DNA of 44,896 nt from a virus, in UHGV virus genome UHGV-0338188. One strand, written 5' to 3'. The notes beneath the pieces are model-generated. The model had not been told where the DNA came from. It was given only the letters and a program-made list of their open reading frames with translations, and did no database searches. Made by a program: the position numbers and the translations under genes. Within the stretch, counting starts at the first letter, position 1. Every line of letters begins with the position of its first letter. This document shows, piece after piece, positions 1,068-39,590 of the stretch.

Positions 1068-1081
1068 GTTTCACATGGAAC
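1068..1081. promoter_or_regulatory. conserved 14-bp near-palindrome GTTTCACATGGAAC (motif copy 1)
   Basis: Member of the GTTTCAYRTGRAAC family, which recurs at 7049, 12860, 29096 and 39577. Lies just after the last early gene. Confidence 0.5.
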
Positions 1082-1250
1082 ATTAGTGTATAATGAATGA
1101 AGATGCCACGGCATCGATCATTTGGTTTCTTCTTTCATGATTCAAGTCCGATTTTTGTTGGAGAAGTCGGCAACGATGTGGATTGATTGGACTACTCACA
1201 ATTTTCCATTTCTTATCCTATCGAATTCGGCCGTTGGTGGTCGGGATGAA

Positions 1251-1277
1251 GGTTTGCTTAACAGCAAGCCTTTTTTT
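1251..1277 (+). terminator. rho-independent terminator at the end of the early region
   Basis: GGTTTGCT-TAAC-AGCAAGCC gives an 8-bp stem (one G-U pair) followed by TTTTTTT. Confidence 0.7.
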
Positions 1278-1290
1278 GTTGGTTTCCGTG

Positions 1291-1296
1291 TATAAT
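1291..1296 (+). promoter_or_regulatory. putative -10 box (TATAAT, preceded by GTG) of the late/packaging operon promoter
   Basis: TATAAT lies 14 nt after the terminator and 32 nt before the ParB-like gene start. No good -35 element. Confidence 0.35.
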
Positions 1297-1328
1297 AGAC
1301 GTATCAAATGCAAGAAAGGAGAAAGGAC

Positions 1329-1949
1329 ATGAAAAACAATGATGAAATGATCGGATCAAAAGAAATCAAGATCGTTCCGATCGATATAGTGATCCCTTAC
1401 GAAGAAAATCCACGCTTGAATGATAAGGCGGTGGAGTACGTGAAGAATTCAATCAAACAATTCAAATTTGCACAGCCGATCGCAGTCGACAAAGATGGCG
1501 TGATCATTGCAGGACATACGAGATATAGAGCATCGAAGGAATTAGGGTTGGAAAGTGTGCCGGTAGTCGTATTGGACTATTTAACCGATGAAGAGGTCAA
1601 GGCTTATCGATTGGCAGATAATAAAGTGGCCGAATTTGCTGATTGGGATTTTGAAAAGCTTAATTTAGAATTAGACAGCTTATTGGATACAGAAATCAGC
1701 ATGGAAGATTTTGGCTTTGCATTCAATACCGAATTAGAGTTCGAAGACGAAGAAGAGCAGGAAGCATCGGACATGATACAGATCAAATTTGCATTAGCAC
1801 CAGAGCAAGCCGAGATCATGGAAGGTGTGTTCCAGTTATTAGAACCGAATTCAAAGACATACGGCAACGAAGATCAATTGGGAAACAAGTTCTTTTCATT
1901 AGCAGAGCAGTGGGCTAAGATGAAGCAGGAAGCGAGGGGATCAGATTGA
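1329..1949 (+). CDS. ParB-like nuclease domain protein
   Basis: N-terminal PIAVDKDGVIIAGHTRYRASKELG resembles the ParB/Srx fold. ATG at 1329 has an AAGGAG RBS; the ATG at 1308 has none. The gene overlaps terS. Confidence 0.65.
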   Translation: MKNNDEMIGSKEIKIVPIDIVIPYEENPRLNDKAVEYVKNSIKQFKFAQPIAVDKDGVIIAGHTRYRASKELGLESVPVVVLDYLTDEEVKAYRLADNKVAEFADWDFEKLNLELDSLLDTEISMEDFGFAFNTELEFEDEEEQEASDMIQIKFALAPEQAEIMEGVFQLLEPNSKTYGNEDQLGNKFFSLAEQWAKMKQEARGSD

Positions 1950-2551
1950 CGAAGAAGAAGCCGGCCGATCAAAAGAAACGTGCAGGCCGTAAAAGCAAGT
2001 ATGAAACACACGTCAAGCCTTACTTTGAGCGCATCGAACTGATGAAGAAAAACGGATATCACGATGAAGACATCGCAAAAGCATTGGACGTCAACAAGTC
2101 GACATTCTCATCTTTTAAAAGCAAATATCCCGAATTAAGAGAATTATTGGAAAAGGCAAACGTTGATCTTGAATTGAAAGTGATCGATTCGTTAGCACAA
2201 CGAGCCGTAGGGATGAGATACACCGAAAAGAAGAAGATCATGCGCAAGAAAGAAGGCCAGGTGGTATTTCAAGAGATCGTGGAAACAGAGAAATTCTTGC
2301 CACCAGACGTGGGGGCAATAGCGTTATACATGAAACGTAACAACATTTACAACACAGCAGAAGAAGAATTGACGAAAGCCCGGATCAGAAAGGCCAACGC
2401 CGAAACGGATATGCTAACCGGAGAAAGCCAGGGAGAAGATGCAAACAATTGGGCGCAAGGCGTGCTAAGCCTTACAGAAAGACAAAGAATGGCCAACGGA
2501 GAGCGCAGGCGCATCTTTGATGATGAGGAAACGGACAAAATGGAAGAGTAA
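1946..2551 (+). CDS. terS: terminase small subunit (TTG start)
   Basis: Basic N-terminus with an HTH-like segment (DEDIAKALDVNKSTFSSFK). Sits immediately upstream of the large terminase. GAGGGG RBS 6 nt before TTG. Confidence 0.65.
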   Translation: MTKKKPADQKKRAGRKSKYETHVKPYFERIELMKKNGYHDEDIAKALDVNKSTFSSFKSKYPELRELLEKANVDLELKVIDSLAQRAVGMRYTEKKKIMRKKEGQVVFQEIVETEKFLPPDVGAIALYMKRNNIYNTAEEELTKARIRKANAETDMLTGESQGEDANNWAQGVLSLTERQRMANGERRRIFDDEETDKMEE

Positions 2552-2670
2552 CGTTATTTTTATTTTGTACCGCCACCGGAGCAGTATCAAACGAAAGTAT
2601 TGATATATCAACAATCATGAAAAAACGGCAATTTTAGCAGACTGTTATTTTTGCCAGAAAGGAAAGAAAT

Positions 2671-4146
2671 ATGACTGAAAAAGATAAAACTATCGAAGCA
2701 GATAAGATCGATTGGGCAGAGATTGTCAGCGTATATTACAATGATCCGGTCGCATTCGCAGAAGACTTTTTGAATTTCGTACCGGATGATTGGCAAGCAA
2801 AAGTTATGTATGATATATGTGATCATCCATTCGTTGCCGTTAAGTCCGGTCAAGGTGTGGGGAAAACCGGGGTCGAATCAGCAGTGATCTTGTGGTACTT
2901 ATGCACAAGGCCGAATGCAAGGATCGTGGCAACAGCACCAACGAAACAGCAGTTGCAAGATGTCTTGTGGGCGGAGGTTTCGAAGTGGCTTGTAAACACG
3001 AAACTCGAACGATTGATCACGTGGACGAAAACAAAGATATACATGAACGGTCATGGGGAACGATGGTTCGCAGTAGCTAAGACATCTAACCGGCCAGAAA
3101 ATATGCAGGGTTATCACGAAGAAAACATGATATTCATTGTGGACGAAGCATCCGGGATCGATGACGAAGTAATGGAAGCCGTATTGGGTACGTTGTCCGG
3201 CAAAGACAACAAGCTTTTGATGATGGGAAACCCCACGAAAGTTTCCGGGATATTCTACGATGCATTTCATAAGGATCGCAGAGATTACAAAACACACACA
3301 GTCGATTCCAGGAACAGCCCAAGAGCATCCAAAGAAAACATCCGGCGTTTGATCAATCGATACGGCGAAGAAAGTGACGTGGTGGCAGTCCGTGTCAAAG
3401 GGGATTTTCCAAGCGGAGAGCCGAACGCATTCATTTCACTAACCGAAGTAGAAAAGGCCGTGTCAAGAGATTTGGAAGGTTACGAGAAACGCAGGTTCGA
3501 TGCTTACAAGTTTTATACAAACGGCGTGATCCAGAACATCATCGATATTCCAAAAGATGCAGAAATACGGATTGGGGTCGATATTGCCAGACATGGGGAT
3601 GATGAAACGGTTCTCGCACCACGTGTCGGCCTTTACTCGCTACCATTGCAAACATTCGGAAAGCAAGACTTAATGACCACCACAGGGCGCATCATGCTAA
3701 TGGCGAAGGAACTACATGAGATATACAACCGCAAGATCGCAATCACATTGGATGATACAGGGGTCGGCGGTGGTGTCACAGACCGACTGAAAGAGATCGT
3801 GACAGAAGAAAATTTGGATTGGATGCAGGTCGATCCGGTCAACTTTGCTGAAAAAGGTAACGATGATTATATGGGCGTTATCTCTTTGATGTATGGGAAC
3901 TTTAAAGATTACATTGATTCCATCAAATTGCCAGATGATAACGACATGATCGGACAACTTACGATCCGCCGGTTCGATGTCGAAAGCAAAGGGCGCATCA
4001 AGATCGAATCCAAAAAGGAAATGAAGCGCCGTGGCCATCCGTCACCGGATAGAGCCGAAGCCGTTGTGATGTCTTATTACAAACCGCCATTCGATGCTAG
4101 TCAATTCAAGATAACGCCACAAGTGATCAAAATTAATAAGAAATAG
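2671..4146 (+). CDS. terL: terminase large subunit
   Basis: Walker A-like VKSGQGVGKT and Walker B-like IFIVDEASGI; 491 aa; C-terminal nuclease-like region. Confidence 0.85.
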   Translation: MTEKDKTIEADKIDWAEIVSVYYNDPVAFAEDFLNFVPDDWQAKVMYDICDHPFVAVKSGQGVGKTGVESAVILWYLCTRPNARIVATAPTKQQLQDVLWAEVSKWLVNTKLERLITWTKTKIYMNGHGERWFAVAKTSNRPENMQGYHEENMIFIVDEASGIDDEVMEAVLGTLSGKDNKLLMMGNPTKVSGIFYDAFHKDRRDYKTHTVDSRNSPRASKENIRRLINRYGEESDVVAVRVKGDFPSGEPNAFISLTEVEKAVSRDLEGYEKRRFDAYKFYTNGVIQNIIDIPKDAEIRIGVDIARHGDDETVLAPRVGLYSLPLQTFGKQDLMTTTGRIMLMAKELHEIYNRKIAITLDDTGVGGGVTDRLKEIVTEENLDWMQVDPVNFAEKGNDDYMGVISLMYGNFKDYIDSIKLPDDNDMIGQLTIRRFDVESKGRIKIESKKEMKRRGHPSPDRAEAVVMSYYKPPFDASQFKITPQVIKINKK

Positions 4147-4158
4147 GGGGATAACACA

Positions 4159-5679
4159 ATGAATTTTTTTAACAAGAGCATCCGGGAAAAGAAAGAACGT
4201 GAGAAAGCCAGCAAGGAAAAGCGAAGTCGTGAATTAGTCATGCAACAGTTGGATGCAGTAGGCAACCAGGCCAGGGATATGATTTCGGTCATGGCCGTTA
4301 AGAAAGCTGAAAAGAATCCAAAAGGACGGCAGACAGAACCAAAATATGAGCAGTTTAATCTAATTAAGAATATGCCGATCAAGCGTGAATATTATCGATC
4401 AAAACAAGCGATCGAATTGCTTTATTATATTTTGAATGTAACGCCGGATGGATCGCAGGCAAAGAACAATTATTTGCGATTAGCTAACAAGGGGCATTAT
4501 GTCGAAGTATTGGGATTCGATGGTAAACCGCACGCAGAAGGTACAGCATACATCAACGAAGAACTTGCGCCACGCATCGGCAAGATATACGGCAAGGGCG
4601 CTGATGGCCTGGTAGACGTGTTGAATCTATCGGCATATGTTTCCGGAGCGGAAGCAATGGAAGTCGAATTGACGGAAAACCTCGATGATGTCGTAGACTT
4701 TCACATCATTTCGCCAGAAACCTTGCAATACATCATCAAGGAAGAAGATGGAACGTTGCAATTGGCGCAGGTTTTAACAGACGGAACAACACAGGAATTG
4801 AATGATCAAGTCCGATACATCCCGATCGATCCGATGATTGATGATCCTTATGGAGTAAGTCCGATCATTCCGGCATTGCAAGCGTTGATCTTTCAAAAAG
4901 AATTCATTGACGATCTGAAAGCAGTAGCGCATCATCAAGGCCACGCAAGAATGGATGTTTCCATCGTAGCCGATAGCATCATTTCATCAGCACCAGACAG
5001 CATCAAGAATGATCCAGAACGATTGACAACGTTTGTGAACCAACAGATCGATCAGATCAAGTCAGACTTTGAGGAATTAGAGCCAACAAGTGACTTTTTC
5101 CACACAGACGGCGTGAAAGTGGATATGGCAGGCGGAACACAAGGAAGATCGATGGATTTCACACCGCTAATGACCGTAGTCGATCGACAAGTTATGCAGG
5201 CGCTGAAACAATTGCCGATCTTGATGGGTAGAAACGAATCGACAACAGAAACGCATGGATCAATCCAATGGCAAATCTTTGTTGATACTATCGAAGCCTG
5301 GCAGAACGTCACAAAACGGATGCTTGAATGGGGATACAACCTGGCATTGCAGGTCAAAGGCATCCCGGCAAAAGCGACAGTGACATTTGAGAAGGTACGT
5401 GCGGAAGATCGCAAGGCAGAAGCCGAAGCATACGAAATCGAGATCAGAAACAATCAGGCTTTATATCAACAAGGCATCATCGATCAAGAAACGTTTGCTA
5501 TGAATACCACCGGAGAAGACCCGGCAGAAGAAACGCCACGATCCCAGGGAACAGGCACAAGCGGTTCGGGAACGAACTTTTCATCGCTATTGGCTAAGTA
5601 CAGCACACAGGCCAACGAAGAAGGCACAGAAGAGGACGAAGAGAACGCCGGTCGTAGCCGTTCGGCATTTCCCTATTAA
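4159..5679 (+). CDS. portal protein
   Basis: 506 aa immediately after terL; acidic C-terminus; position and size typical of SPP1-like portals. Confidence 0.75.
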   Translation: MNFFNKSIREKKEREKASKEKRSRELVMQQLDAVGNQARDMISVMAVKKAEKNPKGRQTEPKYEQFNLIKNMPIKREYYRSKQAIELLYYILNVTPDGSQAKNNYLRLANKGHYVEVLGFDGKPHAEGTAYINEELAPRIGKIYGKGADGLVDVLNLSAYVSGAEAMEVELTENLDDVVDFHIISPETLQYIIKEEDGTLQLAQVLTDGTTQELNDQVRYIPIDPMIDDPYGVSPIIPALQALIFQKEFIDDLKAVAHHQGHARMDVSIVADSIISSAPDSIKNDPERLTTFVNQQIDQIKSDFEELEPTSDFFHTDGVKVDMAGGTQGRSMDFTPLMTVVDRQVMQALKQLPILMGRNESTTETHGSIQWQIFVDTIEAWQNVTKRMLEWGYNLALQVKGIPAKATVTFEKVRAEDRKAEAEAYEIEIRNNQALYQQGIIDQETFAMNTTGEDPAEETPRSQGTGTSGSGTNFSSLLAKYSTQANEEGTEEDEENAGRSRSAFPY

Positions 5680-5686
5680 GCCCGGA

Positions 5687-6927: not shown

Positions 6928-7010
6928 CCATGCGGAAACATGGCGTGTTTAACAAAAACCTATCTTTCGACAAGGGGCGATCTCATCTTTTGATGGGGTT
7001 GCCTTTTTAT
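6928..7010 (+). ncRNA. candidate small RNA (~85 nt) running from the predicted TSS to terminator T2
   Basis: Bounded by an extended -10 element and a strong terminator. Only a 17-codon ORF without an RBS lies inside it. A CCATG-N6-CATGG hairpin sits at 6928..6943. Confidence 0.3.
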
Positions 7011-7033: not shown

Positions 7034-7042
7034 TGATATAAT
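7034..7042 (+). promoter_or_regulatory. extended -10 promoter element (TGATATAAT)
   Basis: Consensus TGnTATAAT; lies 37 nt upstream of the sORF start. Confidence 0.5.
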
Positions 7043-7048
7043 CGAATT

Positions 7049-7062
7049 GTTACATGTGAAAC
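7049..7062. promoter_or_regulatory. motif copy 2 (GTTACATGTGAAAC)
   Basis: Lies 6 nt after the -10 element and 3 nt before RBS GGGAGGG. Confidence 0.5.
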
Positions 7063-7078
7063 ATAGGGAGGGAAAATC

Positions 7079-12822: not shown

Positions 12823-12831
12823 TGCTATAAT
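12823..12831 (+). promoter_or_regulatory. extended -10 promoter element (TGCTATAAT)
   Basis: Consensus TGnTATAAT. Followed by a 10-bp-stem hairpin (12832..12858) and then motif copy 3. Confidence 0.45.
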
Positions 12832-12859
12832 GGTGGTGGCGATATTATTCGCCATCACT

Positions 12860-12873
12860 GTTTCACATGAAAC
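12860..12873. promoter_or_regulatory. motif copy 3 (GTTTCACATGAAAC)
   Basis: Lies 7 nt upstream of RBS AGGAGGG of the tail chaperone gene. Confidence 0.5.
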
Positions 12874-12894
12874 ACCAATCAGGAGGGAAATCAA

Positions 12895-13404
12895 ATGACA
12901 GAATTAGAAAACCAATTGAAAAGCACAGATGTAACAACAAAACCAACTCATATCGAGTTATCAGACGGAAAAGTTATGGCAGTTCCGAAATTAGACGTTG
13001 GGAAAACGTTGGGGCTTGCACGTGTTATCGCAGGCGATGGGTTCGCATTATGGCGCAAGGCGCAAGGCCTATTCACAGAAGTTGAAAAGAAAGATGATTT
13101 TGGCAATCCAATGTTAGATGATGAAGGCCAACCAGTCGTTGAAATCATTGAACCGGAAAACGAACAAATTTTCGCATTCATCGTGGAAAACGTGGGCGAA
13201 GATTTATTGCCAAAAGTATTGGGCATTTTGTTCGGTATCAAAGCAGAAGAAGTCGAAAATATGGAGTTATACGATGCCATTGAATTATTGACAGCTTTAA
13301 TCGATGCGAACGACTTAAAGAAAACTTTTTTAGCAGTGAAGAAACTGACGGAAAAACTAGTATCACGCCAGACAAACGAACCGATAGCAACGCCGGCAGA
13401 TTAA
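12895..13404 (+). CDS. tail assembly chaperone (gpG-like)
   Basis: 169 aa and acidic; lies between the major tail and tape-measure genes. A slippery heptamer sits near its 3' end. Confidence 0.7.
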   Translation: MTELENQLKSTDVTTKPTHIELSDGKVMAVPKLDVGKTLGLARVIAGDGFALWRKAQGLFTEVEKKDDFGNPMLDDEGQPVVEIIEPENEQIFAFIVENVGEDLLPKVLGILFGIKAEEVENMELYDAIELLTALIDANDLKKTFLAVKKLTEKLVSRQTNEPIATPAD

Positions 13405-13872: not shown

Positions 13873-16800
13873 ATGGCAGACGGAAAAAGAATCGGTGGTG
13901 CGTTTTTAGATTTTCAAGTGGATTATTCACAGCTAAAAACGTTTCTAAGCACGATGAACAGCCTATCAGACCAGACGAACAAACAAATATCCGGAATCGG
14001 GTCAGTGATCGAATCAACGATCCAGAAAACGAAGAACTTGACGAAGGAAACGGCAAGCGGTGCGAATCAGCAAAAGAATGCCATGAGTAACATCATGACA
14101 CAGTATGCAAACGCATCGAAAAAAGTCGAAGAAATGACCAACAGTATTTCAAAAACAAAATCAACATCATCAAACGCCACAAAATCGATTCTAAGCGATT
14201 CTAAGAGCATAGCAGGAGAATCATCCAAAACAGCTTTTAAAATGTCGCAATCGACATCGCAGGCGTTCGATTCGATGAAAAAAGACAGTCGTTCATTAAA
14301 TCAAACACTTGTAGCCGGAATGAAAGCCAACGTGCAGGAGTTTGGGCAAAGTTTCAAAAATCTAGGCTCGACATTCAGCGGAATCGCATCATCAATCATT
14401 AACACATTCAAAAAGATTCCGTCCGGGATCGCATCGATTCCGAAAACGATCGCAACACAGATGAAAAATCTAGCCGGATCGATTACATCAGGATTCGCAC
14501 GTGCGAAAGATTCGGCAATCTCACAGATAAAGAAAATACCGGATGCAGTACGATCGGCAGGTAATTCAATCAAGACAGGATTTGCAACGGCGTTCAATAC
14601 AGTTGTTTCCACAGCTACGAACGTAGTCAATAAGACGAACAGAGCGATCCAGACATTGCCACAAACGATCTCACGTGCAGGCAGTGCCATCAAGAACGGA
14701 TTTTCGAATGGGATCAAAGCAATTCCACAGATTGCAAGCAACGTGGCCAGGACAGCAGGCAACGCCTTTTCATCCATCGGAACAACCGTGAAGAATGTCG
14801 CATCGGCATCCGGAAGCGCAATGAAATCATTCCTATCCAGTGGGATGCAAAACGTACTTTCGAAAGCACGTTCGGTTTTCCCTGGTGTCAAGAAACAGAT
14901 TCAAGACGGTGTGGACGAACCAGCCAAAACAGCATCACTTTCATTAGGTAAAATCGCAGGTGCTATCGGTGTGATGAAAGTCGCATCCAAAGCCTTTTCA
15001 ATGATTGGATCATCGATGGAAGGTGCGATAAATCGGATCGATACACTAGCAAATGCCGATCGTGTGTTCGAAAACATGGGATTCAAGGCAGAAGAAACAC
15101 AAAAGATGATGCAGGCGCTAAACAAATCAATAACCGGGCTACCTACGGCGCTGAATGATGCCGTTTCCGGCGTTCAGTTGTTAGCATCATCAACAGGGGA
15201 TATAGGCAAATCACAAAAGATTTTCGAAGCGTTGAACAATGGGATTCTAGGGTTTGGCGGATCGGCGGACATGGTAAACAATGCCATCGTTCAGCTATCA
15301 CAATCATTCTCAAATGGGAAAGTCGATGCCGAAACATGGAACTCAATGATCAACAGTGGATTAGGGCCAGCTTTGAATGCTATTGCGAAACAGATGGGCA
15401 AGACGGCCGGAGAATTAAAAACAGGGCTATCAGAGGGTAATATTTCCGTCAAAGATTTCCAAGATCGTTTGATTGAATTAAACGAAAAAGGTGGCGGAGG
15501 ACTGAAATCCTTGCAACAAATCGCACAGGATGCCACAAAAGGGATCAAGACATCCATTGCCAACTTTAAAACGTCAGTGACACGTGGTGTCGCAGAGATC
15601 ATCAAGGCGTTTGACAAGTTTATCACAGCCGTAACAGGCAAAGGCGTTGCGGATTGGATCGGCACGTTTGCATCCGGATTCGAAGCAGGATTGAAGAAAG
15701 TTGCATCCGGATTCGAAGCAGTCACGCCATTAGCTAAGAAGCTTTATGATACGTTGAAACCATTTGCGCCAGTGATCGGCGGAGTGGTGGCCGGTTTGTT
15801 AGCAATGGGCGGAATCAACTCAACAATCTTTGCCATTAGCAAACTATCGGGAGTATTCGCAACGTTTACGAAGGCATTGTGGGCAAATCCAATCGGGTTA
15901 GTTGTCGGCCTTATCGTAACATTAGGCGTTGTATTCTATAACACTTATAAGAAATCAGAAACATTCCGCAAGAGTGTTGATAACTTGCTAAAACCGCTGA
16001 AAAAAGTCGGAGAAATGGCACAGTTAGCAGGCAAGATGATCCAATTGTATTTATTCGGAGAATATACACAGGATAAAGGGGAACAATTTGCTAAAACACG
16101 CAAAGCGTTGGAAGAAATGTTACCAAAACAAGTGGTCGATGCATTTGTAAAACAAATTCAACGTGTTAGCGATGCAAAAGAAAAATTGACGACTATCATC
16201 AAAGCCATATCGTTATCATTCCAAGACTTAAAACCGGAAGAATATGGCGAAAAAATGAAATCTTTACACGATTATCTTGGTCAATTCATTCCACAAGAAC
16301 AATTGAATGCAATTTGGGTCAGAATCGCTAATTTTAACAATGCAATAAACCAGTTCAAAGATCTATTTAGTATTTTCTACGATGCTTTAAAAGGTAATTT
16401 TAAAGATTTTAACCAATTGTATGAGGAATATGGAGATATTTTCGATATTAGTCAACTGTTCGATATAGTATATATTTCTCAAATATTGAATCAAGTAGGC
16501 GATACGTTTAGATCAGCGTTTACGCAGATTAAACAAGCCATTTTGACAGGTATCACAGAAGGCGATTTTACACAGCTTTATACATTGATCCAACAAATAG
16601 CGCCAACGATTATCGGGATGCTATTGGGCGGTATTCCACAGATTGCCATCGCAGGCGGACGGCTATTGCTTTCGATTGCTGATGGTATGGGCTTAAATAT
16701 TCCACAGTTGATCACGAAGCTAACAACAGAAATCTTGCCTAACATCGTTAACACATTGGTAACCGGAGCAATTACATTTGTGAATGTCGGCATCCAATGG

Positions 16801-19800
16801 ATCAATAATATCATTGCCGGCATTAATCAATCATTGCCAACATTATTGCCGATCGCATCGGGTATCATTTCGAACCTGGTAACGTTTATCATGCAGGCAT
16901 TGCCAGTGATCGTGCAAACAGGTTGGACAATCCTTTCAAACTTGATGGATGGGATCATGCAGGCGTTGCCTAACTTGATCAATATTGCCGTTCAATTGGT
17001 GGTATGGCTTGCACAGACCATCGCACAAAACTTGCCGATAATTGTCAACAAGGGTATGGATATCGTTTTAAACTTGTTGCAAGGGATTCTCAAGAAGTTC
17101 CCTGAATGGTGGGAAATGGCAGTCAAGTTGATCATTCAATTTGGCACGAAACTAGCTGAAAACTTTCCATCGATTGTGAAAAAAGGTTGGGAATTGCTGA
17201 CGAAACTTGTGCAAGGGATTGGCGAAAGAATTCCGGCATTGCTTGCAATGGTCGTTCGATTTATGGGCGATATGTTCGGCAAGATATTGGAGTATTTGCC
17301 AGACTTGATCATTTTAGGTGCGAAATTGATCGTTGCTTTGATCAAAGGCTTGTGGGAGTTCGGCAAAGGTTTGGGCGAATTCATCGGCGGATTTTGGGAT
17401 TCACTGAAAAAAGGTTTTGCGCAAATTGATTGGGGCGAAATCGGTCGAAACGTAATTGATGGGATTGTCAAAGGGTTTACAAAAGGATTCAAGAAGGCAA
17501 AAGATGCCGTGACCGAACTTGCAGGAAACATCGGCGGATGGTTCAAAGAAAAAATGGGTATCAAGTCGCCATCACGAGTTATGGCCAAGATTTCTCAATG
17601 GGTGCCGGCAGGGGTAGCAGTCGGAGTGGAAAAAGGTGCGCCATTAGTTGGTGAAGCGATGGATGCATTAACAACCAGAATGACGAAAACTGTACAAAGC
17701 GCCGATCCAACCGTCAAAAATGAAATCAAAGTCGAATCGAAACCAACATCGATGCCAGTAGATACGAAGCAGATCGCAAACGATGGTTCGTTGAATGCAT
17801 CGGCCTTTAATACCGGATTACAAACGATCGTTCCGCAAGTTACGAACACGATCGACACAATGGCGAAGGCAGTTGATACAACTTTGACGAATCAAGTGCC
17901 AGGAATGCTTTCAAGTGGTCGTGAATGGATAGCAACCATGAACAATGGAATTATTCAGACAGTGCCACAGCTTACAACGAGCGTTTCGAGCATGGTCAAT
18001 CAAACAAACAGCAGGATCGATGCGAACGATGCCACAATGACCAGAAACGGAACAGAATGGGGAAGAAACATTCTATCCGGTTTTAATTCGATTTATCCAC
18101 AATTTATCAATCGGGTTGGGCAATTCACAAATGATACTGTTAACCGCTTGAGATCGATCAACAACACTGTTTTATCCATCGGCAGACAATACATGCAGTT
18201 ACTTCTTAACGGAATCAATCAATTGTATGGCACAGTTGTTTCACGTGTAACAGCGTTGGGAAATCAGATGGTTTCGTCCTTAAATTCAAAACGTGGCGGA
18301 TTCTACAATGCCGGAACGTATTTGATGAATGGACTAATATCCGGAATAAACGCCGTCAAAGGTTCGCTTAATACGACAATGAACAGCGTTGCAAATGCGA
18401 TGGTCGGAGGAATCGGAAAAGGTGTGAACGGCGTTGCTAGTGGTGTAAACTACATCATGGGTCAAGTTGAATCGAAAAAACGGATCAACAGTTGGAACAT
18501 TCCGAAATATGCAAGTGGTACTGACGGCCATCCAGAAGATGGATTTGCAATGGTCAATGACCAACCAGGATCAAATTATCATGAGATCGTTCAACGTCCG
18601 AACGGCGAAACGTTTATCCCTAAAGCAAGAAATGCAGTGTTATGGTTAGAAAAAGGATCGAAGGTCGTCAAAGCATCAATGACGAAGCAAATCCTTAAAG
18701 CTAGAAAAAACGCCATTCCACGATATAAAAACGGTGTCGGGGATATCGATGTGGCAGATTTCATCGATGATGAAGATGCATTGAAACGATTTTTCCAAAG
18801 CAAAGTGAATTATTCGCAAATTAAGTCGCCGTGGAACGGTATGACAAAAACAGCCGTCAACATGATCGGCCATGCATCAAATGACATGATACAAACGGCG
18901 TTGAGTGATTTCTTTAGTCACGGCAATTTCGATGGATCATTGTTTGCAGGCGGTGGAGCGTTCAACAACGTTTACACGTATCTTGTAGACGTAGCGCAAA
19001 AACTCATGACGAAGTTCCCTGGTTTAGTTCCTACATCCGGTTACCGCCCGGGCGATGCTTATTATCACGGAAAACACCAGGCAATCGATTTGGCTTATCC
19101 TGGAGTTTCAAACGATCCAAGATATACCACGATCGCAAATTACGCTTTTGAGAAATTCAAGAATCAAATTGCTTACGTCATTACAAATGGCCGAGTGCGT
19201 GACCGCATGGGGCTATCCGGCACAGGCGCATCCGGCAATTGGGTAACATGGCCAGCTCACGATCACTTTGACCATATCCATCTAAACGGAGCATTTGGCG
19301 GTGGCCAGTTGCAAAGCGGTGGTGGCGGTGGCGTTGAAAAATGGCGTGGCCTAGCTATCAAAGCGTTAAGAATGGAAGGACAATATTCGCCGGCCAATCT
19401 TAATGCACTATTGAATCAAATGCGGACAGAATCAAACGGCGATCCGAACGCTATCAATTTGTGGGATCCGAACGCCCTTAAAGGAACGCCATCAAAAGGA
19501 TTGATGCAGGTTATCGATCCAACGTTCCGGGCTTATGCACGTCCGCCATATAATAAAAATATCTTTGATCCTATTTCGAACATCCTGGCATCGATCAGAT
19601 ACACGTTGAGAACGTACGGCAGTTTAATTGCTGGATGGCGTGGTGTAGGCTATGCAAACGGCGGAATGGTCACAAAAGATGGGCTTTATAGAATGGGCGA
19701 AGGAAACAAAGCTGAAATGGTTATACCATTGACCAAGCCACAAAGAGCGATGGAATTAATTATGCAAGCCATCCAATATATGGGCGGTGGCGGATTGATC

Positions 19801-20073
19801 AAATCGCTTTCAAATGTCGCAATTCCGGTCATGGATAACCTGACAGGATTCGCAATAAATAGCGCAGGCATTTCCGGCGGTGCGGATGATCCAACCAACA
19901 AAGCCATTTTAAGTGCTATCATGGAACAAAATGAAATATTGCGCCAGATTCTAGCGAAGAACACCGATGTCATTTTGAATGGCCGTGTTGTTTCACAAGA
20001 ATTGTTGCCGGAATTGGATAAACAGCGTGCAAGAAATCAAGTGTTAGAAAGACGAAAAGAAGGGAAGAAATAG
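13873..20073 (+). CDS. tape measure protein with C-terminal M23 peptidase-like and SLT lytic transglycosylase-like domains
   Basis: 2066 aa. The central region is hydrophobic. HQAID (HxxxD) and HIH motifs lie at about 19075..19290. ESNGDPNAIN...GLMQV lies at about 19430..19510. Confidence 0.85.
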   Translation: MADGKRIGGAFLDFQVDYSQLKTFLSTMNSLSDQTNKQISGIGSVIESTIQKTKNLTKETASGANQQKNAMSNIMTQYANASKKVEEMTNSISKTKSTSSNATKSILSDSKSIAGESSKTAFKMSQSTSQAFDSMKKDSRSLNQTLVAGMKANVQEFGQSFKNLGSTFSGIASSIINTFKKIPSGIASIPKTIATQMKNLAGSITSGFARAKDSAISQIKKIPDAVRSAGNSIKTGFATAFNTVVSTATNVVNKTNRAIQTLPQTISRAGSAIKNGFSNGIKAIPQIASNVARTAGNAFSSIGTTVKNVASASGSAMKSFLSSGMQNVLSKARSVFPGVKKQIQDGVDEPAKTASLSLGKIAGAIGVMKVASKAFSMIGSSMEGAINRIDTLANADRVFENMGFKAEETQKMMQALNKSITGLPTALNDAVSGVQLLASSTGDIGKSQKIFEALNNGILGFGGSADMVNNAIVQLSQSFSNGKVDAETWNSMINSGLGPALNAIAKQMGKTAGELKTGLSEGNISVKDFQDRLIELNEKGGGGLKSLQQIAQDATKGIKTSIANFKTSVTRGVAEIIKAFDKFITAVTGKGVADWIGTFASGFEAGLKKVASGFEAVTPLAKKLYDTLKPFAPVIGGVVAGLLAMGGINSTIFAISKLSGVFATFTKALWANPIGLVVGLIVTLGVVFYNTYKKSETFRKSVDNLLKPLKKVGEMAQLAGKMIQLYLFGEYTQDKGEQFAKTRKALEEMLPKQVVDAFVKQIQRVSDAKEKLTTIIKAISLSFQDLKPEEYGEKMKSLHDYLGQFIPQEQLNAIWVRIANFNNAINQFKDLFSIFYDALKGNFKDFNQLYEEYGDIFDISQLFDIVYISQILNQVGDTFRSAFTQIKQAILTGITEGDFTQLYTLIQQIAPTIIGMLLGGIPQIAIAGGRLLLSIADGMGLNIPQLITKLTTEILPNIVNTLVTGAITFVNVGIQWINNIIAGINQSLPTLLPIASGIISNLVTFIMQALPVIVQTGWTILSNLMDGIMQALPNLINIAVQLVVWLAQTIAQNLPIIVNKGMDIVLNLLQGILKKFPEWWEMAVKLIIQFGTKLAENFPSIVKKGWELLTKLVQGIGERIPALLAMVVRFMGDMFGKILEYLPDLIILGAKLIVALIKGLWEFGKGLGEFIGGFWDSLKKGFAQIDWGEIGRNVIDGIVKGFTKGFKKAKDAVTELAGNIGGWFKEKMGIKSPSRVMAKISQWVPAGVAVGVEKGAPLVGEAMDALTTRMTKTVQSADPTVKNEIKVESKPTSMPVDTKQIANDGSLNASAFNTGLQTIVPQVTNTIDTMAKAVDTTLTNQVPGMLSSGREWIATMNNGIIQTVPQLTTSVSSMVNQTNSRIDANDATMTRNGTEWGRNILSGFNSIYPQFINRVGQFTNDTVNRLRSINNTVLSIGRQYMQLLLNGINQLYGTVVSRVTALGNQMVSSLNSKRGGFYNAGTYLMNGLISGINAVKGSLNTTMNSVANAMVGGIGKGVNGVASGVNYIMGQVESKKRINSWNIPKYASGTDGHPEDGFAMVNDQPGSNYHEIVQRPNGETFIPKARNAVLWLEKGSKVVKASMTKQILKARKNAIPRYKNGVGDIDVADFIDDEDALKRFFQSKVNYSQIKSPWNGMTKTAVNMIGHASNDMIQTALSDFFSHGNFDGSLFAGGGAFNNVYTYLVDVAQKLMTKFPGLVPTSGYRPGDAYYHGKHQAIDLAYPGVSNDPRYTTIANYAFEKFKNQIAYVITNGRVRDRMGLSGTGASGNWVTWPAHDHFDHIHLNGAFGGGQLQSGGGGGVEKWRGLAIKALRMEGQYSPANLNALLNQMRTESNGDPNAINLWDPNALKGTPSKGLMQVIDPTFRAYARPPYNKNIFDPISNILASIRYTLRTYGSLIAGWRGVGYANGGMVTKDGLYRMGEGNKAEMVIPLTKPQRAMELIMQAIQYMGGGGLIKSLSNVAIPVMDNLTGFAINSAGISGGADDPTNKAILSAIMEQNEILRQILAKNTDVILNGRVVSQELLPELDKQRARNQVLERRKEGKK

Positions 20074-28993: not shown

Positions 28994-29017
28994 AAAAAGG
29001 AAAGGAGGTGAAACCCT

Positions 29018-29065
29018 ATGCATTACACGAACAACTCAGTCGATGAAAGAGGGAAACCGGTATAG
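29018..29065 (+). CDS. candidate leader peptide (15 aa, MHYTNNSVDERGKPV)
   Basis: Perfect RBS GGAGGTG with a 7-nt spacer. Followed by alternative hairpins (29070..29095) and motif copy 4. Confidence 0.3.
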   Translation: MHYTNNSVDERGKPV

Positions 29066-29095
29066 TAACAATCCGGGTTTTCCCCGATCCGGATT

Positions 29096-29109
29096 GTTTC
29101 ATGTGGAAC
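29096..29109. promoter_or_regulatory. motif copy 4 (GTTTCATGTGGAAC)
   Basis: Lies 4 nt upstream of RBS GGAGGTG of the first lysis-cassette gene. Confidence 0.5.
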
Positions 29110-29126
29110 AATCGGAGGTGAAAAAA

Positions 29127-31602: not shown

Positions 31603-31818
31603 ATGAAGCCTAGTATATCTTTAGAACAATACAAAGAAATTATTTCGGGATGTGATCATCAAGAATTGCACATCGAAGCAAAGGGATTTTTGAATGGCGG
31701 AATAAACGAACACAACGAAGCATATGCGATCGCTTTATATGGGCGATTGTGTATGTTAGGCAGTTGGATTTCAGCATTATTAGGGGAGGAAATAGAGAAA
31801 TGGAAAGAAAGCAAGTGA
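31603..31818 (+). CDS. hypothetical early protein (71 aa)
   Basis: TAGGAGGT RBS. Confidence 0.6.
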   Translation: MKPSISLEQYKEIISGCDHQELHIEAKGFLNGGINEHNEAYAIALYGRLCMLGSWISALLGEEIEKWKESK

Positions 31819-32003
31819 ACACAGCAAGAATCCGTGTACAAATGAAAATGAGAGGGGAAACAGATGAAACGATGGCGAAGCGTTTAAACGTTTCACGTGT
31901 AACATACAACAAATTGATCAATAACAAATATGTTTCCGGAAACGCCAATGCTTATATCGAAACCATCGAAAAAATTCTTGGCATGGATCAAAATATCAGA
32001 TAA
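31800..32003 (+). CDS. small HTH DNA-binding protein (XRE-like)
   Basis: MAKRLNVSRVTYNKLINNK helix-turn-helix; GGAGG RBS; overlaps the upstream gene by 19 nt. Confidence 0.55.
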   Translation: MERKQVNTARIRVQMKMRGETDETMAKRLNVSRVTYNKLINNKYVSGNANAYIETIEKILGMDQNIR

Positions 32004-35539: not shown

Positions 35540-35543
35540 TAGC

Positions 35544-35581: not shown

Positions 35582-35591
35582 TATAAAATGC

Positions 35592-35620
35592 TTGTTCAAC
35601 ACATTGTCTTATGGTAAGAT
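35592..35620 (+). promoter_or_regulatory. promoter (TTGTTC - 17 nt - TGGTAAGAT) of the replication unit
   Basis: A -35-like element, 17-nt spacer, and an extended -10-like element. Confidence 0.5.
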
Positions 35621-35664
35621 AGTTTTTGTAACAACGAATTGAACAAAAGGAGATGTAAAAAAGT

Positions 35665-35844
35665 ATGAAAAATAAAAACAGAATTGTATTAGAAAAGAAA
35701 TTGTTAGACAGTGGGAAGACGTGGCGTGGTGTAGCGAAAGAGCTAGGTATATCGCACGAATATCTTTCAAAGTTGATTAATGGTAAAACTAACAAATCAG
35801 CGCAAGAAAGATGGTTGCCAGTAATCGAAAGTAAATTGAAGTAA
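35665..35844 (+). CDS. Cro-like HTH protein (59 aa; below the ORF-track size cutoff)
   Basis: WRGVAKELGISHEYLSKLINGK helix-turn-helix; first gene after the promoter. Confidence 0.55.
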   Translation: MKNKNRIVLEKKLLDSGKTWRGVAKELGISHEYLSKLINGKTNKSAQERWLPVIESKLK

Positions 35845-35857
35845 AGGGGTGGTTTTA

Positions 35858-36118
35858 GTGTCAGAATTAAGACCAAAGGCGCTATTTGATGATCGTTTAT
35901 CTTGGAAATCAAGAGGGATATATATGTATTTGATTTCTGAATATCCAATGAATTATTTTACAGAAAAAGAGTTAGTTAAGCGGACACCTGGTGGTATGTC
36001 AGCGTTAAGAAGTGGGTTAAAAGAGTTGATAAAATACGGTTATCTTGATCGTGTACAAATAAGAGACAAAGGACGCTTCATCGGCGTTGAGTGGCACTTG
36101 CACGTTCCTATAATTTAA
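35858..36118 (+). CDS. winged-HTH protein, replication-initiator N-terminal domain paralog 1 (GTG start)
   Basis: AAAGGGGTGG RBS. The segment SRGIYMYLISEYPMNYFTEKELVKRTPGGMSALRSGLKELIKYGYLDR resembles the HTH_36 family. Confidence 0.5.
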   Translation: MSELRPKALFDDRLSWKSRGIYMYLISEYPMNYFTEKELVKRTPGGMSALRSGLKELIKYGYLDRVQIRDKGRFIGVEWHLHVPII

Positions 36119-36141
36119 TAAAAATGAAAGAGGTTTGAGAA

Positions 36142-36489
36142 ATGAACAAAAATGAAAAATATGAATATTTTAGTCCGGATTTAGTTGAGAAAACACCAGT
36201 TTTATTGAACGATACAGATTTCGAAATTTATTGCAGCCCGGAAGAATATTTATTCGTGTGTATGTTAAGTAGTACCTTAGCAAAGTATAAAAAATTATAT
36301 ATCATGCCTAGTGAAACGCATTTCGATTCTTTTTTTGGAAAATCACCGCAAGCAATGAGAATTTTCATTTATAGCTTGAAAGATAAGGGCTTGATTAATC
36401 TCGAACAAATGGAAGGTATTCCAAGTGGTTATTATTGGATAACACTAGGTAAAAACGCTAGAAACAAAATAATGGACGGTGATTTTTAG
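36142..36489 (+). CDS. winged-HTH protein, paralog 2
   Basis: Same domain architecture as the genes at 35858 and 36489 (YLFVCMLSS...IYSLKDKGLIN). Confidence 0.5.
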   Translation: MNKNEKYEYFSPDLVEKTPVLLNDTDFEIYCSPEEYLFVCMLSSTLAKYKKLYIMPSETHFDSFFGKSPQAMRIFIYSLKDKGLINLEQMEGIPSGYYWITLGKNARNKIMDGDF

Positions 36490-37175
36490 TGAACAATAAT
36501 CAAGATAGATTCGACAAGTTTCCCGAATGGTTGTATAAAATAAAAGGTTTAACAGCGGATGAAAAACTTGTTTACATGAAAATAAGGGCGCTTGCCAAAG
36601 ATCGTGGAACGTGGGCATCAAATGAATATTTTGCAAATTTCTTTGACAAAGATGTTAGGTCAATAAATCGCTATCTAGCTAAAATGGAAAAAATGGGTTT
36701 GATATGGCGAGATACTAAAATAAAAAAAGGTTACATCAAAGAAAGAATGATTTATATAAACCAGACACATGACACAGATGTCAGCTGTACACATGACACA
36801 GATGTCACATCAACAGAGAATAACTTAACAGATAATTATTTAACAGATAATAAACTAACAGATAAAAAACCTATGAGCGAATCAAATGATTCACTCGCAG
36901 AAGCGTTCGAAAAGCTTTGGAAACTGTATCCGAACAAAAAAGGCAAAAAGCCAGCTTTCACAGCATACAAACGAGCGATCAAAAAAGGAACAACAAACAA
37001 ACAGATTCAAGATGGCATTGTCAGATACATTGCCGAAATCAAAAAAAGACGTACGCCGATCGACAAAGTGGCACATGGATCAACGTTTTTCAATCAAGAA
37101 AGATGGTTGGATGATTATGATCAACAAGCAACAGTTTCAGACGGTGGAAACAAATATTCGAATTTGGGATGGTGA
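36489..37175 (+). CDS. replication initiator / replisome organiser (winged-HTH N-terminus; iterons inside the gene)
   Basis: The N-terminal domain is paralogous to the two preceding genes. Direct DNA repeats are embedded in the coding sequence. The C-terminus is basic. Confidence 0.55.
   Translation: MNNNQDRFDKFPEWLYKIKGLTADEKLVYMKIRALAKDRGTWASNEYFANFFDKDVRSINRYLAKMEKMGLIWRDTKIKKGYIKERMIYINQTHDTDVSCTHDTDVTSTENNLTDNYLTDNKLTDKKPMSESNDSLAEAFEKLWKLYPNKKGKKPAFTAYKRAIKKGTTNKQIQDGIVRYIAEIKKRRTPIDKVAHGSTFFNQERWLDDYDQQATVSDGGNKYSNLGW
36765..36865. repeat. putative origin iterons: two copies of ACACATGACACAGATGTCA (24-bp period) and three copies of TAACAGATAA (15-bp period)
   Basis: Direct repeats read directly at 36765, 36789, 36826, 36841 and 36856. 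Confidence 0.6.
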
Positions 37176-37190
37176 TACCTGGTGGAAAAC

Positions 37191-38063
37191 ATGAGAGATT
37201 CAATGCAAATGCTTATGAGCAAGTTCATGGTCAAAACGGATGAAATGTGCGAAATCCACGGAATTGCGAAAGTGATTGCCAGAAATCAAAACGACATGAA
37301 ACCTTTTTGCGTTGAATGTCGCAGGTTGGAAATCGAACAGCAAAACAAAGAAAGAGCGGACAAAGCCTTACAAGCAGATATCAAACGCAAAACATATGAT
37401 GCACTGAAATATGATTCGATTTGCTCGGATGATGATGTTTGGAAAGCATCTTTCGACACGTTCCGGACGGATGGCAAAGATGCAGAAGCTTTGAAGATCG
37501 CAAAAGACAAAGCCAGACACATTGCCGGAGAGTACCTGGCGAAACGAATTGAAGTTGATGAAAATGGGAAAAAGAAGATCGTTAGAAATGAATTTAACAC
37601 GATTTTAACAGGCCCAGCCGGATCGGGAAAAAGCCATTTGGCTATGTCGATTATTAAAGCCGTCAACGAACATTCCGATCCCTGGCAAAGTTGTATTTTC
37701 GTTTCAACAGTCGATTTGCTGATGCTTATCCGTGATAGTTTTGGCAAGCCGGATTCGAAATTTTCAGAAGCAAACATGATCAATCTGTTAACAAATTGCG
37801 ATTTGCTTGTGTTGGATGATCTAGGAACAGAATCAAGTTTAGTAAGAAACGCTAATGAATCATCGGATTTTGTGCAAAAAGTTTTGTTTAGCATCTTATC
37901 GAGAAAAAGGACGATCATCACGACAAATCTTTCATCGGGTCAATTGATGGATATGTACAATCCTAAAATCATTTCTCGAATCAACAAGGGAGTAGGATTT
38001 GACGGAAAGCACGTGATCAAGATGCCGGATGATGTCGAAGACAAACGTATTTTATCGTTTTAG
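37191..38063 (+). CDS. DnaC/IstB-like AAA+ helicase loader
   Basis: Walker A-like TGPAGSGKSHLA and Walker B-like LLVLDDLG. GGTGG RBS before the ATG at 37191. Confidence 0.7.
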   Translation: MRDSMQMLMSKFMVKTDEMCEIHGIAKVIARNQNDMKPFCVECRRLEIEQQNKERADKALQADIKRKTYDALKYDSICSDDDVWKASFDTFRTDGKDAEALKIAKDKARHIAGEYLAKRIEVDENGKKKIVRNEFNTILTGPAGSGKSHLAMSIIKAVNEHSDPWQSCIFVSTVDLLMLIRDSFGKPDSKFSEANMINLLTNCDLLVLDDLGTESSLVRNANESSDFVQKVLFSILSRKRTIITTNLSSGQLMDMYNPKIISRINKGVGFDGKHVIKMPDDVEDKRILSF

Positions 38064-38118
38064 GCGAGAAGACTCCCACCTTAAGGAACGAAAGTAAATA
38101 GGTGGGAGATGAATCGCC
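38064..38118. repeat. left boundary hairpin (GGCGA..CTCCCACCT-loop-AGGTGGGAG..TCGCC), related to the hairpin at 39532..39562
   Basis: Stem of 9 bp plus 5 bp. The loop sequence TAAGGAACGAAAGT parallels TAAGCGAAGCGAAAGT in the right-hand copy. Confidence 0.5.
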
Positions 38119-38134
38119 TTTGAACAAGGGATGA

Positions 38135-38287
38135 CTACTTACCATCTCTATTGTCCAACTGTTCAAGTGCATATTGAATAAGATAAATAATTGTTTGGGT
38201 ACGAGTTGTGAAACCCTTCTTTTCTTTGAACTCGTCAATTCGTTTCAATAATTCTTTTGGATAACGCATATTCAAAACTTGCGACAT
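38135..38287 (-). CDS. ribbon-helix-helix-like small DNA-binding protein (50 aa; below the ORF-track size cutoff)
   Basis: Minus-strand ATG with RBS GGAGGTT and a 5-nt spacer. The MRYPKELLKRIDEFKEKKGFTTRTQTIIYLIQYALEQL pattern resembles Arc/CopG-type proteins. Confidence 0.45.
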   Translation of the reverse strand: MSQVLNMRYPKELLKRIDEFKEKKGFTTRTQTIIYLIQYALEQLDNRDGK

Positions 38288-38373
38288 TTTTTAACCTCCA
38301 TATTGTGTATTAAAATAATACATGATATAATCAATGTATATTATAATAATACACAACTGAGGGGTGAAAATCA

Positions 38374-39498
38374 ATGATTGTGAATAAAGCATATAAATTT
38401 AGAATCTATCCAAACAAAGAACAAGAAATACTGATTGCTAAAACAATCGGTTGTTCTCGTTTTGTATTCAATCATTTCCTCGCAAAATGGAACGATACTT
38501 ATAAGGCAACAGGAAAAGGTTTGACTTACAATTCGTGTTCTTCTCAATTAACCCAATTAAAGAAAGAATTAGTTTGGTTAAAAGAGGTGGACAGCATTGC
38601 GATTCAATCTTCACTCAAAAACCTTGCTGATGCATATTCTCGCTTCTTTAAGAAGCAAAACGATGCACCTCACTTCAAGTCCAAAAAGAATAAGGTTCAA
38701 TCTTATACAACAAAACACACGAATGGAAACATTGCCATTGAAGGCAACAAAATCAAATTGCCTAAACTTGGATGGATTCGTTTTGCAAAGAGTCGTGAAG
38801 TAGAAGGTCGTATTCTCAATGCAACAATTAGACGAAAATCAAGTGGAAAACATTTTGTATCCATTCTTGTAGAAACAGAAGTACAACCGTTAGAAAAAAC
38901 AGGTTCTTCTGTGGGCATAGATGTCGGCTTGAAAGATTTTGCTATTCTTTCAGATGGAACAAAATACAAAAACCCAAAATGGTTGCGTAAATTAGAAAAG
39001 AAATTAGCAAAAGAACAACGGATTCTTTCAAGACGTAAAAAAGGTGGTTCAAATTGGAATAAGCAACGAATTAAAGTAGCTCGTATTCACGAAAAAATTA
39101 CAAATACAAGAAAAGATTACTTGGACAAAATCTCTACCTATATTGTCAAGAACCACGACATTATCGGGATTGAAGATTTGTCAGTATCGAATATGTTAAA
39201 GAATCATAACCTTGCAAAAGCGATCAGCGAAGTATCTTGGTATCAATTCAGAACGATGCTTGAATACAAAGCGAAATGGCACGGCAAACAAGTTGTTGCG
39301 GTATCTAAAACGTTTGCAAGTTCTCAATTGTGTTCGTGTTGTGGATACAAAAACAAAGACGTTAAGAATCTAAATCTTCGTGAATGGGATTGCCCATCTT
39401 GTGGAACACATCACGACAGAGATATTAACGCAAGTTTGAATCTTAAAAATGAAGCTATAAGGCTTCTAACCGTAGGGACTACGGGGATAGCCTACTAA
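38374..39498 (+). CDS. tnpB: TnpB (IS200/IS605-family OrfB; RuvC-like RNA-guided nuclease)
   Basis: OrfB N-terminus [10 protein letters not shown]; Ruv[12 protein letters not shown], Ruv[14 protein letters not shown], zinc finger CSCCGY...CPSCG, Ruv[12 protein letters not shown]. Confidence 0.85.
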
Positions 39499-39590
39499 AT
39501 ATTCGCTCGATAGAGCGAAGTTCGTAGGAATCTCCCACTTCTAAGCGAAGCGAAAGTGGGAGTAGTTCAATCTAATGTTTCACATGAAAC
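39380..39590 (+). ncRNA. putative omega-RNA (right-end RNA) scaffold and guide region
   Basis: Hairpins CGCTC-GATA-GAGCG (39504..39517) and CTCCCACTT-N13-AAGTGGGAG (39532..39562) lie just 3' of tnpB. In characterised TnpB systems the guide follows the right end. Confidence 0.3.
39577..39590. promoter_or_regulatory. motif copy 5 (GTTTCACATGAAAC)
   Basis: Lies 8 nt upstream of RBS GGAGGG of the gene at 39612. Confidence 0.5.

Follow-up and report, generated by a model that had tools for sequence, protein, structure and literature searches.

The present work concerns UHGV virus genome UHGV-0338188, a viral sequence of 44,896 nucleotides (hereafter the window, meaning the whole of this stretch), and a short palindrome that recurs throughout it. 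The window is the complete, circularly permuted genome of an Enterococcus faecium siphophage and shares approximately 96% identity with phage fHoEfm07 (PV296021.1) across nearly its full length; when TerL is compared among GenBank phages, only fHoEfm07 is close. Every predicted gene lies on the plus strand, except one small open reading frame (ORF) within an insertion sequence (IS), and no integrase is annotated in fHoEfm07.

An earlier note on this DNA drew attention to a 14-bp near-palindrome with five copies in intergenic leaders and one near-copy inside a gene. The coordinates and sequences of these six copies are all correct and the recurrence is real. We find eight sites in all, and the repeated unit reads as parS, the 16-bp DNA site on which the chromosome-partition protein ParB, a dimeric helix-turn-helix (HTH) protein and CTP-dependent clamp, is loaded. 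The sites, numbered S1 to S8, are listed here in genome order together with the ParB_N-domain gene of the phage; SD denotes a Shine-Dalgarno sequence.

1067..1082: S1, TGTTTCACATGGAACA; intergenic, 6 nt 5' of TATAAT (1089-1094), ahead of the ParB_N/terminase operon
1308..1949, plus strand: ParB_N-domain gene, 213 aa (Pfam ParB_N, 8.8e-11)
7048..7063: S2, TGTTACATGTGAAACA; intergenic, with GGGAGGG 3 nt and the start codon GTG (7079) 15 nt further on
12859..12874: S3, TGTTTCACATGAAACA; intergenic, 20 nt before the ATG at 12895
18237..18252: S4, TGTTTCACGTGTAACA; within the tape-measure gene (13873-20073), coding for V-S-R-V-T
29095..29110: S5, TGTTTCATGTGGAACA; intergenic, 4 nt before GGAGGTG and adjoining a 7-bp hairpin (29070-29095)
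31889..31904: S6, CGTTTCACGTGTAACA; within a small XRE-type HTH gene (31800-32003), coding for V-S-R-V-T of the HTH
39576..39591: S7, TGTTTCACATGAAACA; intergenic, with GGAGGG 8 nt and the start codon ATG (39612) 20 nt further on
42702..42717: S8, TGTTTCACGTGGAACA; within the ORF 42605-42928, identical to the variant of phage phi29

The palindrome and its likeness to parS

The strict consensus GTTTCAYRTGRAAC has five distinct matches in the window (1068, 12860, 29096, 39577 and 42703) against 0.01 expected, and the copy at 7049 differs from it at one base (A, at position 4). If one mismatch to the symmetric form is permitted, the copy at 7049 is included, together with two genic copies, at 18238 in the tape-measure gene and at 31890 in the small HTH gene. 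Both of these read GTTTCACGTGTAAC and neither is in the list of the earlier note, which knew only the genic near-copy at 42703. In seven of the eight copies a T precedes the 14-mer and an A follows it, and the true unit is therefore a 16-bp palindrome, TGTTTCAYRTGRAACA. This reads as canonical chromosomal parS, for which a consensus with an N position has been given (TGTTNCACGTGAAACA; PMC7022226), with CA/TG replacing the CG centre. The centre is CG in the three coding copies and CA/TG in the five intergenic copies.

All eight copies agree with parS at 14-15 of the 16 positions. Against the parS 16-mer TGTTTCACGTGAAACA, as PMC10197239 gives it with reference to Livny 2007, the window holds exactly eight sites with one or two mismatches and none with three, and all eight lie within the detection cut-off of two mismatches quoted in the same place. 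The earlier note had proposed that the enrichment be checked against shuffled sequence; in 300 dinucleotide-preserving shuffles we obtain a mean of 0.05 sites at two or fewer mismatches, compared to the eight observed, which amount to approximately one per 5.6 kb. The base that varies among the copies and their orthologues is position 5, with its mirror position 12, which is to say the 'N' of parS (TGTTNCAC...). The bases found there are T, A or C in one arm and A, G or T in the opposite arm; phi29 shares the G variant (TGGAAC) of S1, S5 and S8. The half-sites GTTTCAC/GTGAAAC are also enriched (18 against 7.4 expected), with seven of the 18 coming from full sites; this was rejected as a separate signal, the remainder outside the full sites showing no clear excess.

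Conservation and placement of the sites

Diverged relatives were taken from public assemblies, in which each locus spans only part of a genome. Two of these, L133 and L134, are syntenic and encode a ParB_N protein that is 62% identical; for the loci L135-L141 it is the Dit protein that is 71-84% identical. Each of the eight sites has a counterpart in the same place of the genome in one or more diverged relatives (proteins 62-84% identical). S1 is kept in fHoEfm07, in L009 and in the diverged L133. S2 is identical in L134 and reads TGTTCCACGTGAAACA in L133, which we take to be the B. subtilis spo0J parS sequence. S3 is kept in L136 and L138-L140, S5 reads TGTTTCATGTGAAACG in L135, TGTTTCACATGAAACG in L138 and TGTTTCACATGAAACA in L139, and the orthologues of S7 lie at position 1349 of L133 (TGTTTCATGTGGAACA) and position 804 of L134. 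As regards the coding copies, the S4 16-mer is unchanged in L135-L141 while adjacent codons vary, S6 occurs also in L135 and as TGTTTCACGTGTAACT in L139, and the S8 16-mer is unchanged in L133 and L134 despite strongly diverged flanking codons; in these three sites the 16-mer is invariant even at synonymous positions. Conservation of the motif columns is 0.91-1.00 versus 0.64-0.87 for the 45 nt on either side, in alignments some of which drew in paralogous sites, the assignment of orthologues resting on separate comparisons of the loci. Comparison with relatives thus shows a pattern of purifying selection on the palindrome. The more distant L003, whose TerL is 57% identical, has no parS-like site, so that the sites are specific to this phage lineage.

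Orthologous sites alternate among CG, CA and TG centres, and among T, C and A at position 5; CA and TG are interchanged between orthologues at S5 and S7, and three intergenic sites with a CG centre are found in relatives (L133 positions 9165 and 15753, L134 position 9130). A single transition turns CG into either CA or TG. Within S4 and S6 the CG lies inside a CGT arginine codon, where such transitions alter the protein, and at S8 one transition of the CG centre would be synonymous. The simplest reading is that the central base pair is weakly constrained for binding, though a preference for the non-canonical centre in leaders is possible.

Five of the eight sites are intergenic in a genome with a coding fraction of 94% by our gene model, and these five are the copies which the earlier note had placed outside coding sequence. 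A wider viral set has 79 intergenic sites out of 148, with non-coding DNA at 15%, a bias that fits a DNA element under pressure to spare proteins. The recurrence at module boundaries is also borne out, with the orthologous locations of S2 before the head module, S3 before a tail gene and S5 before the lysis module, where S5 lies some 13-16 nt ahead of the first gene start (GTG 29124 by homology to L138; 29127 in the gene model). For four of the five intergenic sites, in gaps 77-162 nt long, the distance from the end of the palindrome is 15-20 nt to a start codon and 3-8 nt to a GGAGG-type SD, in agreement with the proximity to ribosome-binding sites claimed for four copies; S1 stands by its TATAAT and not beside a ribosome-binding site. 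With uniform placement of the sites within their own gaps, such closeness to the start codon has a probability of approximately 1% (hand-calculated from the gap lengths). As a general rule, a position of parS just before the ribosome-binding site had to be rejected: among 61 sites on other viral contigs, 19 lie within 25 nt against 21 expected. The earlier note had looked to conservation of position relative to the ribosome-binding site in related phages; all eight sites do keep their genomic position in relatives, and the rule does not carry over to other phages. The closeness in this lineage may reflect tight packing, the upstream part of the gap being filled by other elements, which are a terminator and promoter-like element before S2, TGCTATAAT and a hairpin before S3, and a 7-bp hairpin before S5.

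The extended -10-like elements reported at 7034, 12823 and 28985 are all present. S1 occupies the -35/spacer position of a promoter-like element and S2 starts 5 nt past the extended -10 TGATATAAT (7034-7042), that is, at +1, with a strong terminator-like hairpin (6972-7007) just to its 5' side. S3 is preceded by TGCTATAAT (12823-12831) and then by an 8-bp hairpin (12835-12856). Only S1 and S2 overlap promoter-like elements; no convincing promoter lies close by S5 or S7, and of the five plus-strand TGNTATAAT elements in the genome two directly precede a site. The operator-like position that the earlier note saw downstream of promoters thus applies to the copies at 1068, 7049 and perhaps 12860, and not to the remainder. 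Repression or a roadblock by ParB at the leaders is possible. An ECF-sigma promoter, with TGAAAC as its -35 element, was considered and rejected: there is no conserved -10 element at the right spacing and the SD would lie in the spacer.

Several other features of these leaders were observed. The sequence GGAGGGAAA occurs four times in the genome, and in three cases it is the SD region after S2, S3 or S7 (7067, 12882 and 39599), against 0.46 expected; the repeated unit may be longer than parS, or these may merely be the strongest ribosome-binding sites at module starts. The 8-bp hairpin at 12835-12856 is kept upstream of the S3 orthologues in L136, L138 and L139 through compensatory changes (arms GGTGGCGA/TCGCCATC versus GTGGACGA/TCGTTCAC), which fits a putative 5'-terminal stem-loop of the mRNA. 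After the TATAAT at 1089, some 175 nt lead to a hairpin and U-run resembling a strong terminator (1248-1273), just before the ParB_N/terminase operon, and a 57-aa ORF that spans this hairpin (1122-1295) is probably no gene. The region 1089-1280 has a fold z-score of -2.1 and no Rfam match, its start is conserved in L133, and it may be a short leader, a small RNA or an antitermination-controlled late leader. A 15-codon ORF (MHYTNNSVDERGKPV*) before the lysis module (29003-29066), with its ATG at 29019 and a strong SD (AGGAGGTG), ends just before the hairpin and S5 and may encode a leader peptide; in the annotation of fHoEfm07, one coding sequence instead runs across this region and parS.

Candidate readers of the sites

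A scan of IMG/VR with TGTTTCACATGAAACA reveals many unrelated viral contigs with several parS-like sites, in which CG and CA/TG centres are mixed. L029 (IMGVR_UViG_3300045988_095234), a phi29-like podovirus by Pfam, has six sites in 12 kb, L072 (65% GC) has six in 2.4 kb, and further multi-parS contigs are L050, L080 and L107/L125. The genome of phi29 itself contains four exact copies of TGTTTCACGTGGAACA. In L029 nearly all of the sites stand just upstream of gene starts, and one is centred in a 30-bp perfect palindrome. No phage regulator is common to the multi-parS contigs, phi29 and the present phage. Since the same 16-mer is found in unrelated phages that share no regulator, we infer that the reader is host ParB: the binder is most likely the conserved ParB/Spo0J of the host rather than a phage-specific repressor. 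The factor shared by these viruses is plausibly a ParB-bearing host. Multi-copy parS on phage genomes looks widespread, and we found no survey of it in the literature.

The phage does have a gene related to parB, that of the 213-aa ParB_N protein. Sequence matches in the PDB cover only residues 18-108 of this protein (the ParB/Srx domain), and its box II reads GHTRYRA where ParB has GERRxRA. In an AlphaFold2 model with a mean pLDDT of 80.5, the remainder is an acidic linker and two helices, and the Foldseek matches are confined to the N domains of ParB, Noc and KorB; no HTH, DNA-binding or dimerisation domain was detected by Pfam, by PDB sequence search or by structure search. The family is large, with 1877 matches, all of them PF02195 only. 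A homologue is present in L010, L011 and L006, which have no parS-like site, and no ParB_N gene was found in the examined stretches of the multi-parS contigs. The protein may nonetheless be connected with the sites. Self-encoded partition systems of the P1, N15 or mycobacteriophage RedRock type comprise ParA and a full-length ParB, and neither was found by Pfam among 20 ORFs of the window or in the annotation of fHoEfm07; nor did the ParB_N-family HMM, run against every ORF of 80 aa or more, yield a full-length ParB.

That the ParB_N protein (1308-1949) should itself read the sites, in a self-contained partition or packaging system, is hence very unlikely in our judgement. The gene begins 227 nt downstream of S1, and gene and sites are both kept in L133 and L134. 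Its product, however, has no detectable DNA-binding domain and an acidic C-terminal half, and across contigs the members of this widespread family do not co-occur with the sites. A better case, if still an unlikely one, can be made for an operator bound by some dimeric regulator of the phage (the XRE-type HTH protein of 31800-32003, the Cro-like protein of 35665-35844 or another small protein) that times or shuts modules, with the parS likeness a coincidence or a mimicry. Such a role would account for S1 lying over the -35/spacer of TATAAT, for S2 at the +1 of TGATATAAT and for the two TGNTATAAT elements that stand directly before sites; the phage does encode HTH_3 proteins and S6 lies in an HTH gene itself. 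Yet all eight copies match a universally conserved host sequence at nearly every position, and unrelated phages without these regulators carry multiple copies of the 16-mer. S4, S6 and S8 are intragenic and distant from promoters, no convincing promoter accompanies S5 or S7, and S7, in relatives without the IS, follows immediately 3' of the stop codon of a DnaC-like loader gene. The sites are thus neither placed as a repressor/Cro operator would be, overlapping promoters, nor confined to phages with a cognate regulator. The earlier note had suggested a dimeric HTH or ribbon-helix-helix (RHH) regulator and had named the HTH at 31800, the Cro-like protein at 35665 and the RHH at 38135 as candidates. 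The general part of this suggestion survives, the palindrome being of a protein-binding type, under selection, with a dimeric HTH binder probable; the identity with parS went unrecognised, and the named binders find no support, the same 16-mer occurring in phages that lack their genes and three copies being genic and distant from promoters.

The two further alternatives of the earlier note, an RNA stem and a recombination boundary, fare worse. A GUUUC/GAAAC hairpin in the 5' leader, acting before the SD on translation, mRNA stability or processing, would suit the short distance between the four intergenic copies and their SDs and the SD sequence GGAGGGAAA that follows three of them, and, with the genes all on the plus strand, every copy is transcribed. 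We nevertheless regard it as highly improbable. Orthologous variants break the pairing about as often as they keep it (A-A in S2, C-A in its L133 orthologue and T-T in S4 and S6, with C-A, T-C, T-T and also T-G as the outer pair), whereas a regulatory hairpin should show compensatory or wobble pairing and a fixed strand. The asymmetric centre is found facing either way with respect to transcription, three of the conserved copies are genic, the stem has just 5-6 pairs and does not overlap the SD, the wider phage set shows no closeness to start codons beyond expectation, and an Rfam scan of the whole window returned no match. A sequence that promotes the exchange of modules between phages is the least credible of these explanations. 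Three rearrangements among close relatives do adjoin S2 and S7, namely a 217-bp indel, the indel of a 437-bp gene and the IS. At base-pair resolution, however, the indel junctions fall at microhomologies of the SD regions, outside the motif. In the window, relative to fHoEfm07 and L002, a 217-bp deletion (window 7064-7078 versus L001 5120-5350) has taken away the 5' portion of the small gene that follows S2 and fused the SD to an internal GTG at the microhomology AAAATCGTG, and L002 is without the 437-bp zinc-ribbon gene (39602-40038) after S7 by way of an AATCGGA microhomology between two SD regions. The IS used its own TTTTAT target, 5 nt to the 5' side of S7, breakpoints between relatives mostly fall away from the sites, and the coding copies cannot be module boundaries.

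The IS itself, an IS200/IS605-type element at 38056-39570, is absent from fHoEfm07 and contains tnpB only (38374-39498), along with a small minus-strand ORF (38135-38287). It sits behind a TTTTAT in the final codons of the DnaC-like gene, where the insertion changes ...KRILF* to ...KRILSF*. The right end is 5 nt before S7, and the predicted omega-RNA guide (TCTAATGTTTCACATG...) would take in half of parS. The same IS is found at 86% identity in Bacillus phages (SPG24, phiNIT1, BSP9 and others) and at 90% in Enterococcus phage iF6.

Recruitment of the host chromosome-partition machinery by parS sites of the phage, as in phi29, is in our view the probable explanation. Its established part is the identity to parS, the excess over chance and the purifying selection in relatives, and from these we infer the rest. 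Phage DNA entering an Enterococcus cell would be bound by the host's own ParB, which would nucleate at each site and slide or spread across the 45-kb genome, and the coated DNA would come to resemble an origin-proximal piece of chromosome. The likely result would be that phage genomes are positioned and partitioned with the host nucleoid, possibly with recruitment of SMC, and that an unintegrated genome could persist through cell division in a carrier state or pseudolysogeny. As a secondary step, ParB at the leaders (S1 over the -35/spacer, S2 at +1) may damp transcription, or insulate it, in the packaging, head, tail and lysis modules.

Certain points weigh against the recruitment of host ParB. 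Binding of ParB to S1-S8 is a prediction from sequence. All five intergenic copies in the window have the CA/TG centre and not the canonical CG, and our literature search found no paper with CA/TG-centre variants or on the binding of ParB to them. Enterococci are non-sporulating, which makes spore entrapment, the sole demonstrated benefit of parS to a phage, inapplicable. Simple loading of ParB does not predict closeness to start codons, and a leader-specific function is conceivable. The OMM12 consortium includes E. faecalis. The parS flavour and the parB gene of E. faecium rest on the literature, that is, on the general conservation of parS and on the ParABS homologues and consensus parS reported in all 12 OMM12 genomes (PMC10197239).

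In a more elaborate scheme, which we put forward as speculative and rather improbable, the packaging, head, tail and lysis modules would be repressed or roadblocked by the ParB clamps in leaders and near promoters, and this repressor could be titrated by copy number. Replication would outnumber ParB with hundreds of new parS sites and so turn the late modules on, as a replication-coupled timer, and the HTH-less ParB_N protein, whose promoter is overlapped by S1, would pair with the N-terminal gate of host ParB and so modulate the timer.

Known systems and significance

The closest parallel is phage phi29, an established virulent phage. Five parS sites that bind Spo0J have been described in it, with host Spo0J involved in trapping the genome in spores (Meijer et al. 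2005, as cited in PMC2731898). Like phi29, the present phage has no integrase gene, no parS-reading ParB of its own and several copies of the host parS 16-mer, one of which, S8, is identical to the TGTTTCACGTGGAACA of phi29. The copies in phi29 are mostly genic with a CG centre, whereas here five of the eight are in leaders and the intergenic ones have CA/TG. Moreover, phi29 is a 19-kb protein-primed podovirus that exploits spore entrapment; here we have a 45-kb siphovirus of the non-sporulating Enterococcus. With the chromosomal parS/ParB (Spo0J) system of Firmicutes and most bacteria, the sites share the 16-bp palindrome, the variable position and the occurrence in several copies. They differ in being on a virus and not near oriC, in the common variants of the centre and in the intergenic preference; the density of chromosomal parS is also far below the one per 5.6 kb of the phage.

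Other mobile genomes offer more distant comparisons. Phage N15 has its inverted repeat (IR) sites scattered through the genome, near phage promoters. Four natural IR sequences (IR1-IR4) with varying central bases are known as its SopB sites (PMC7205306). These resemble the present sites as single palindromic centromere sites whose central bases vary, and differ in that N15 is a temperate plasmid-prophage with its own SopA and SopB and that their sequence is unrelated to chromosomal parS. KorB of plasmid RK2 is a CTP clamp of the ParB family, which acts as a global repressor through OB palindromes at or near promoters. As a palindrome recurring around a mobile genome, OB is a model for any transcriptional role of parS in leaders, except that RK2 encodes KorB with its own HTH and this phage encodes no such protein. 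In mycobacteriophages, a 17-bp intergenic palindrome (TGTTCGGNNNCCGAACA) of unexplained function recurs in Cluster O, in a phage that has a gene with a ParB-like domain and no integrase; the stoperators of Cluster A are asymmetric, oriented with transcription and bind the phage repressor, and the start-associated sequences of Cluster K are tied to start codons (PMC4351075). These motifs are likewise short and recur across many intergenic gaps, but their sequences are others and none is host parS, and the present site, which is palindromic and shows no orientation bias in its centre, lacks the character of a stoperator. In a paper on Staphylococcus phage Lacachita it was proposed that phages with a lone parB-like gene might use ParB-parS for extrachromosomal maintenance, and no sites were reported (PMC10286716).

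Our verdict is that this phage would belong with the carriers of host parS of the phi29 type, in a host that does not sporulate. If this is true, the strategy of phi29 extends to a different type of virus and to a non-sporulating pathogen targeted by phage therapy, and the phage genome would be positioned or inherited with the host chromosome while hidden, as a carrier state or pseudolysogeny; this has a bearing on the judging of therapeutic Enterococcus phages as 'strictly lytic'. Interference with chromosome segregation or SMC loading of the host is also suggested. The scattering of multi-copy, host-type parS over unrelated phages would make this a tractable general question.

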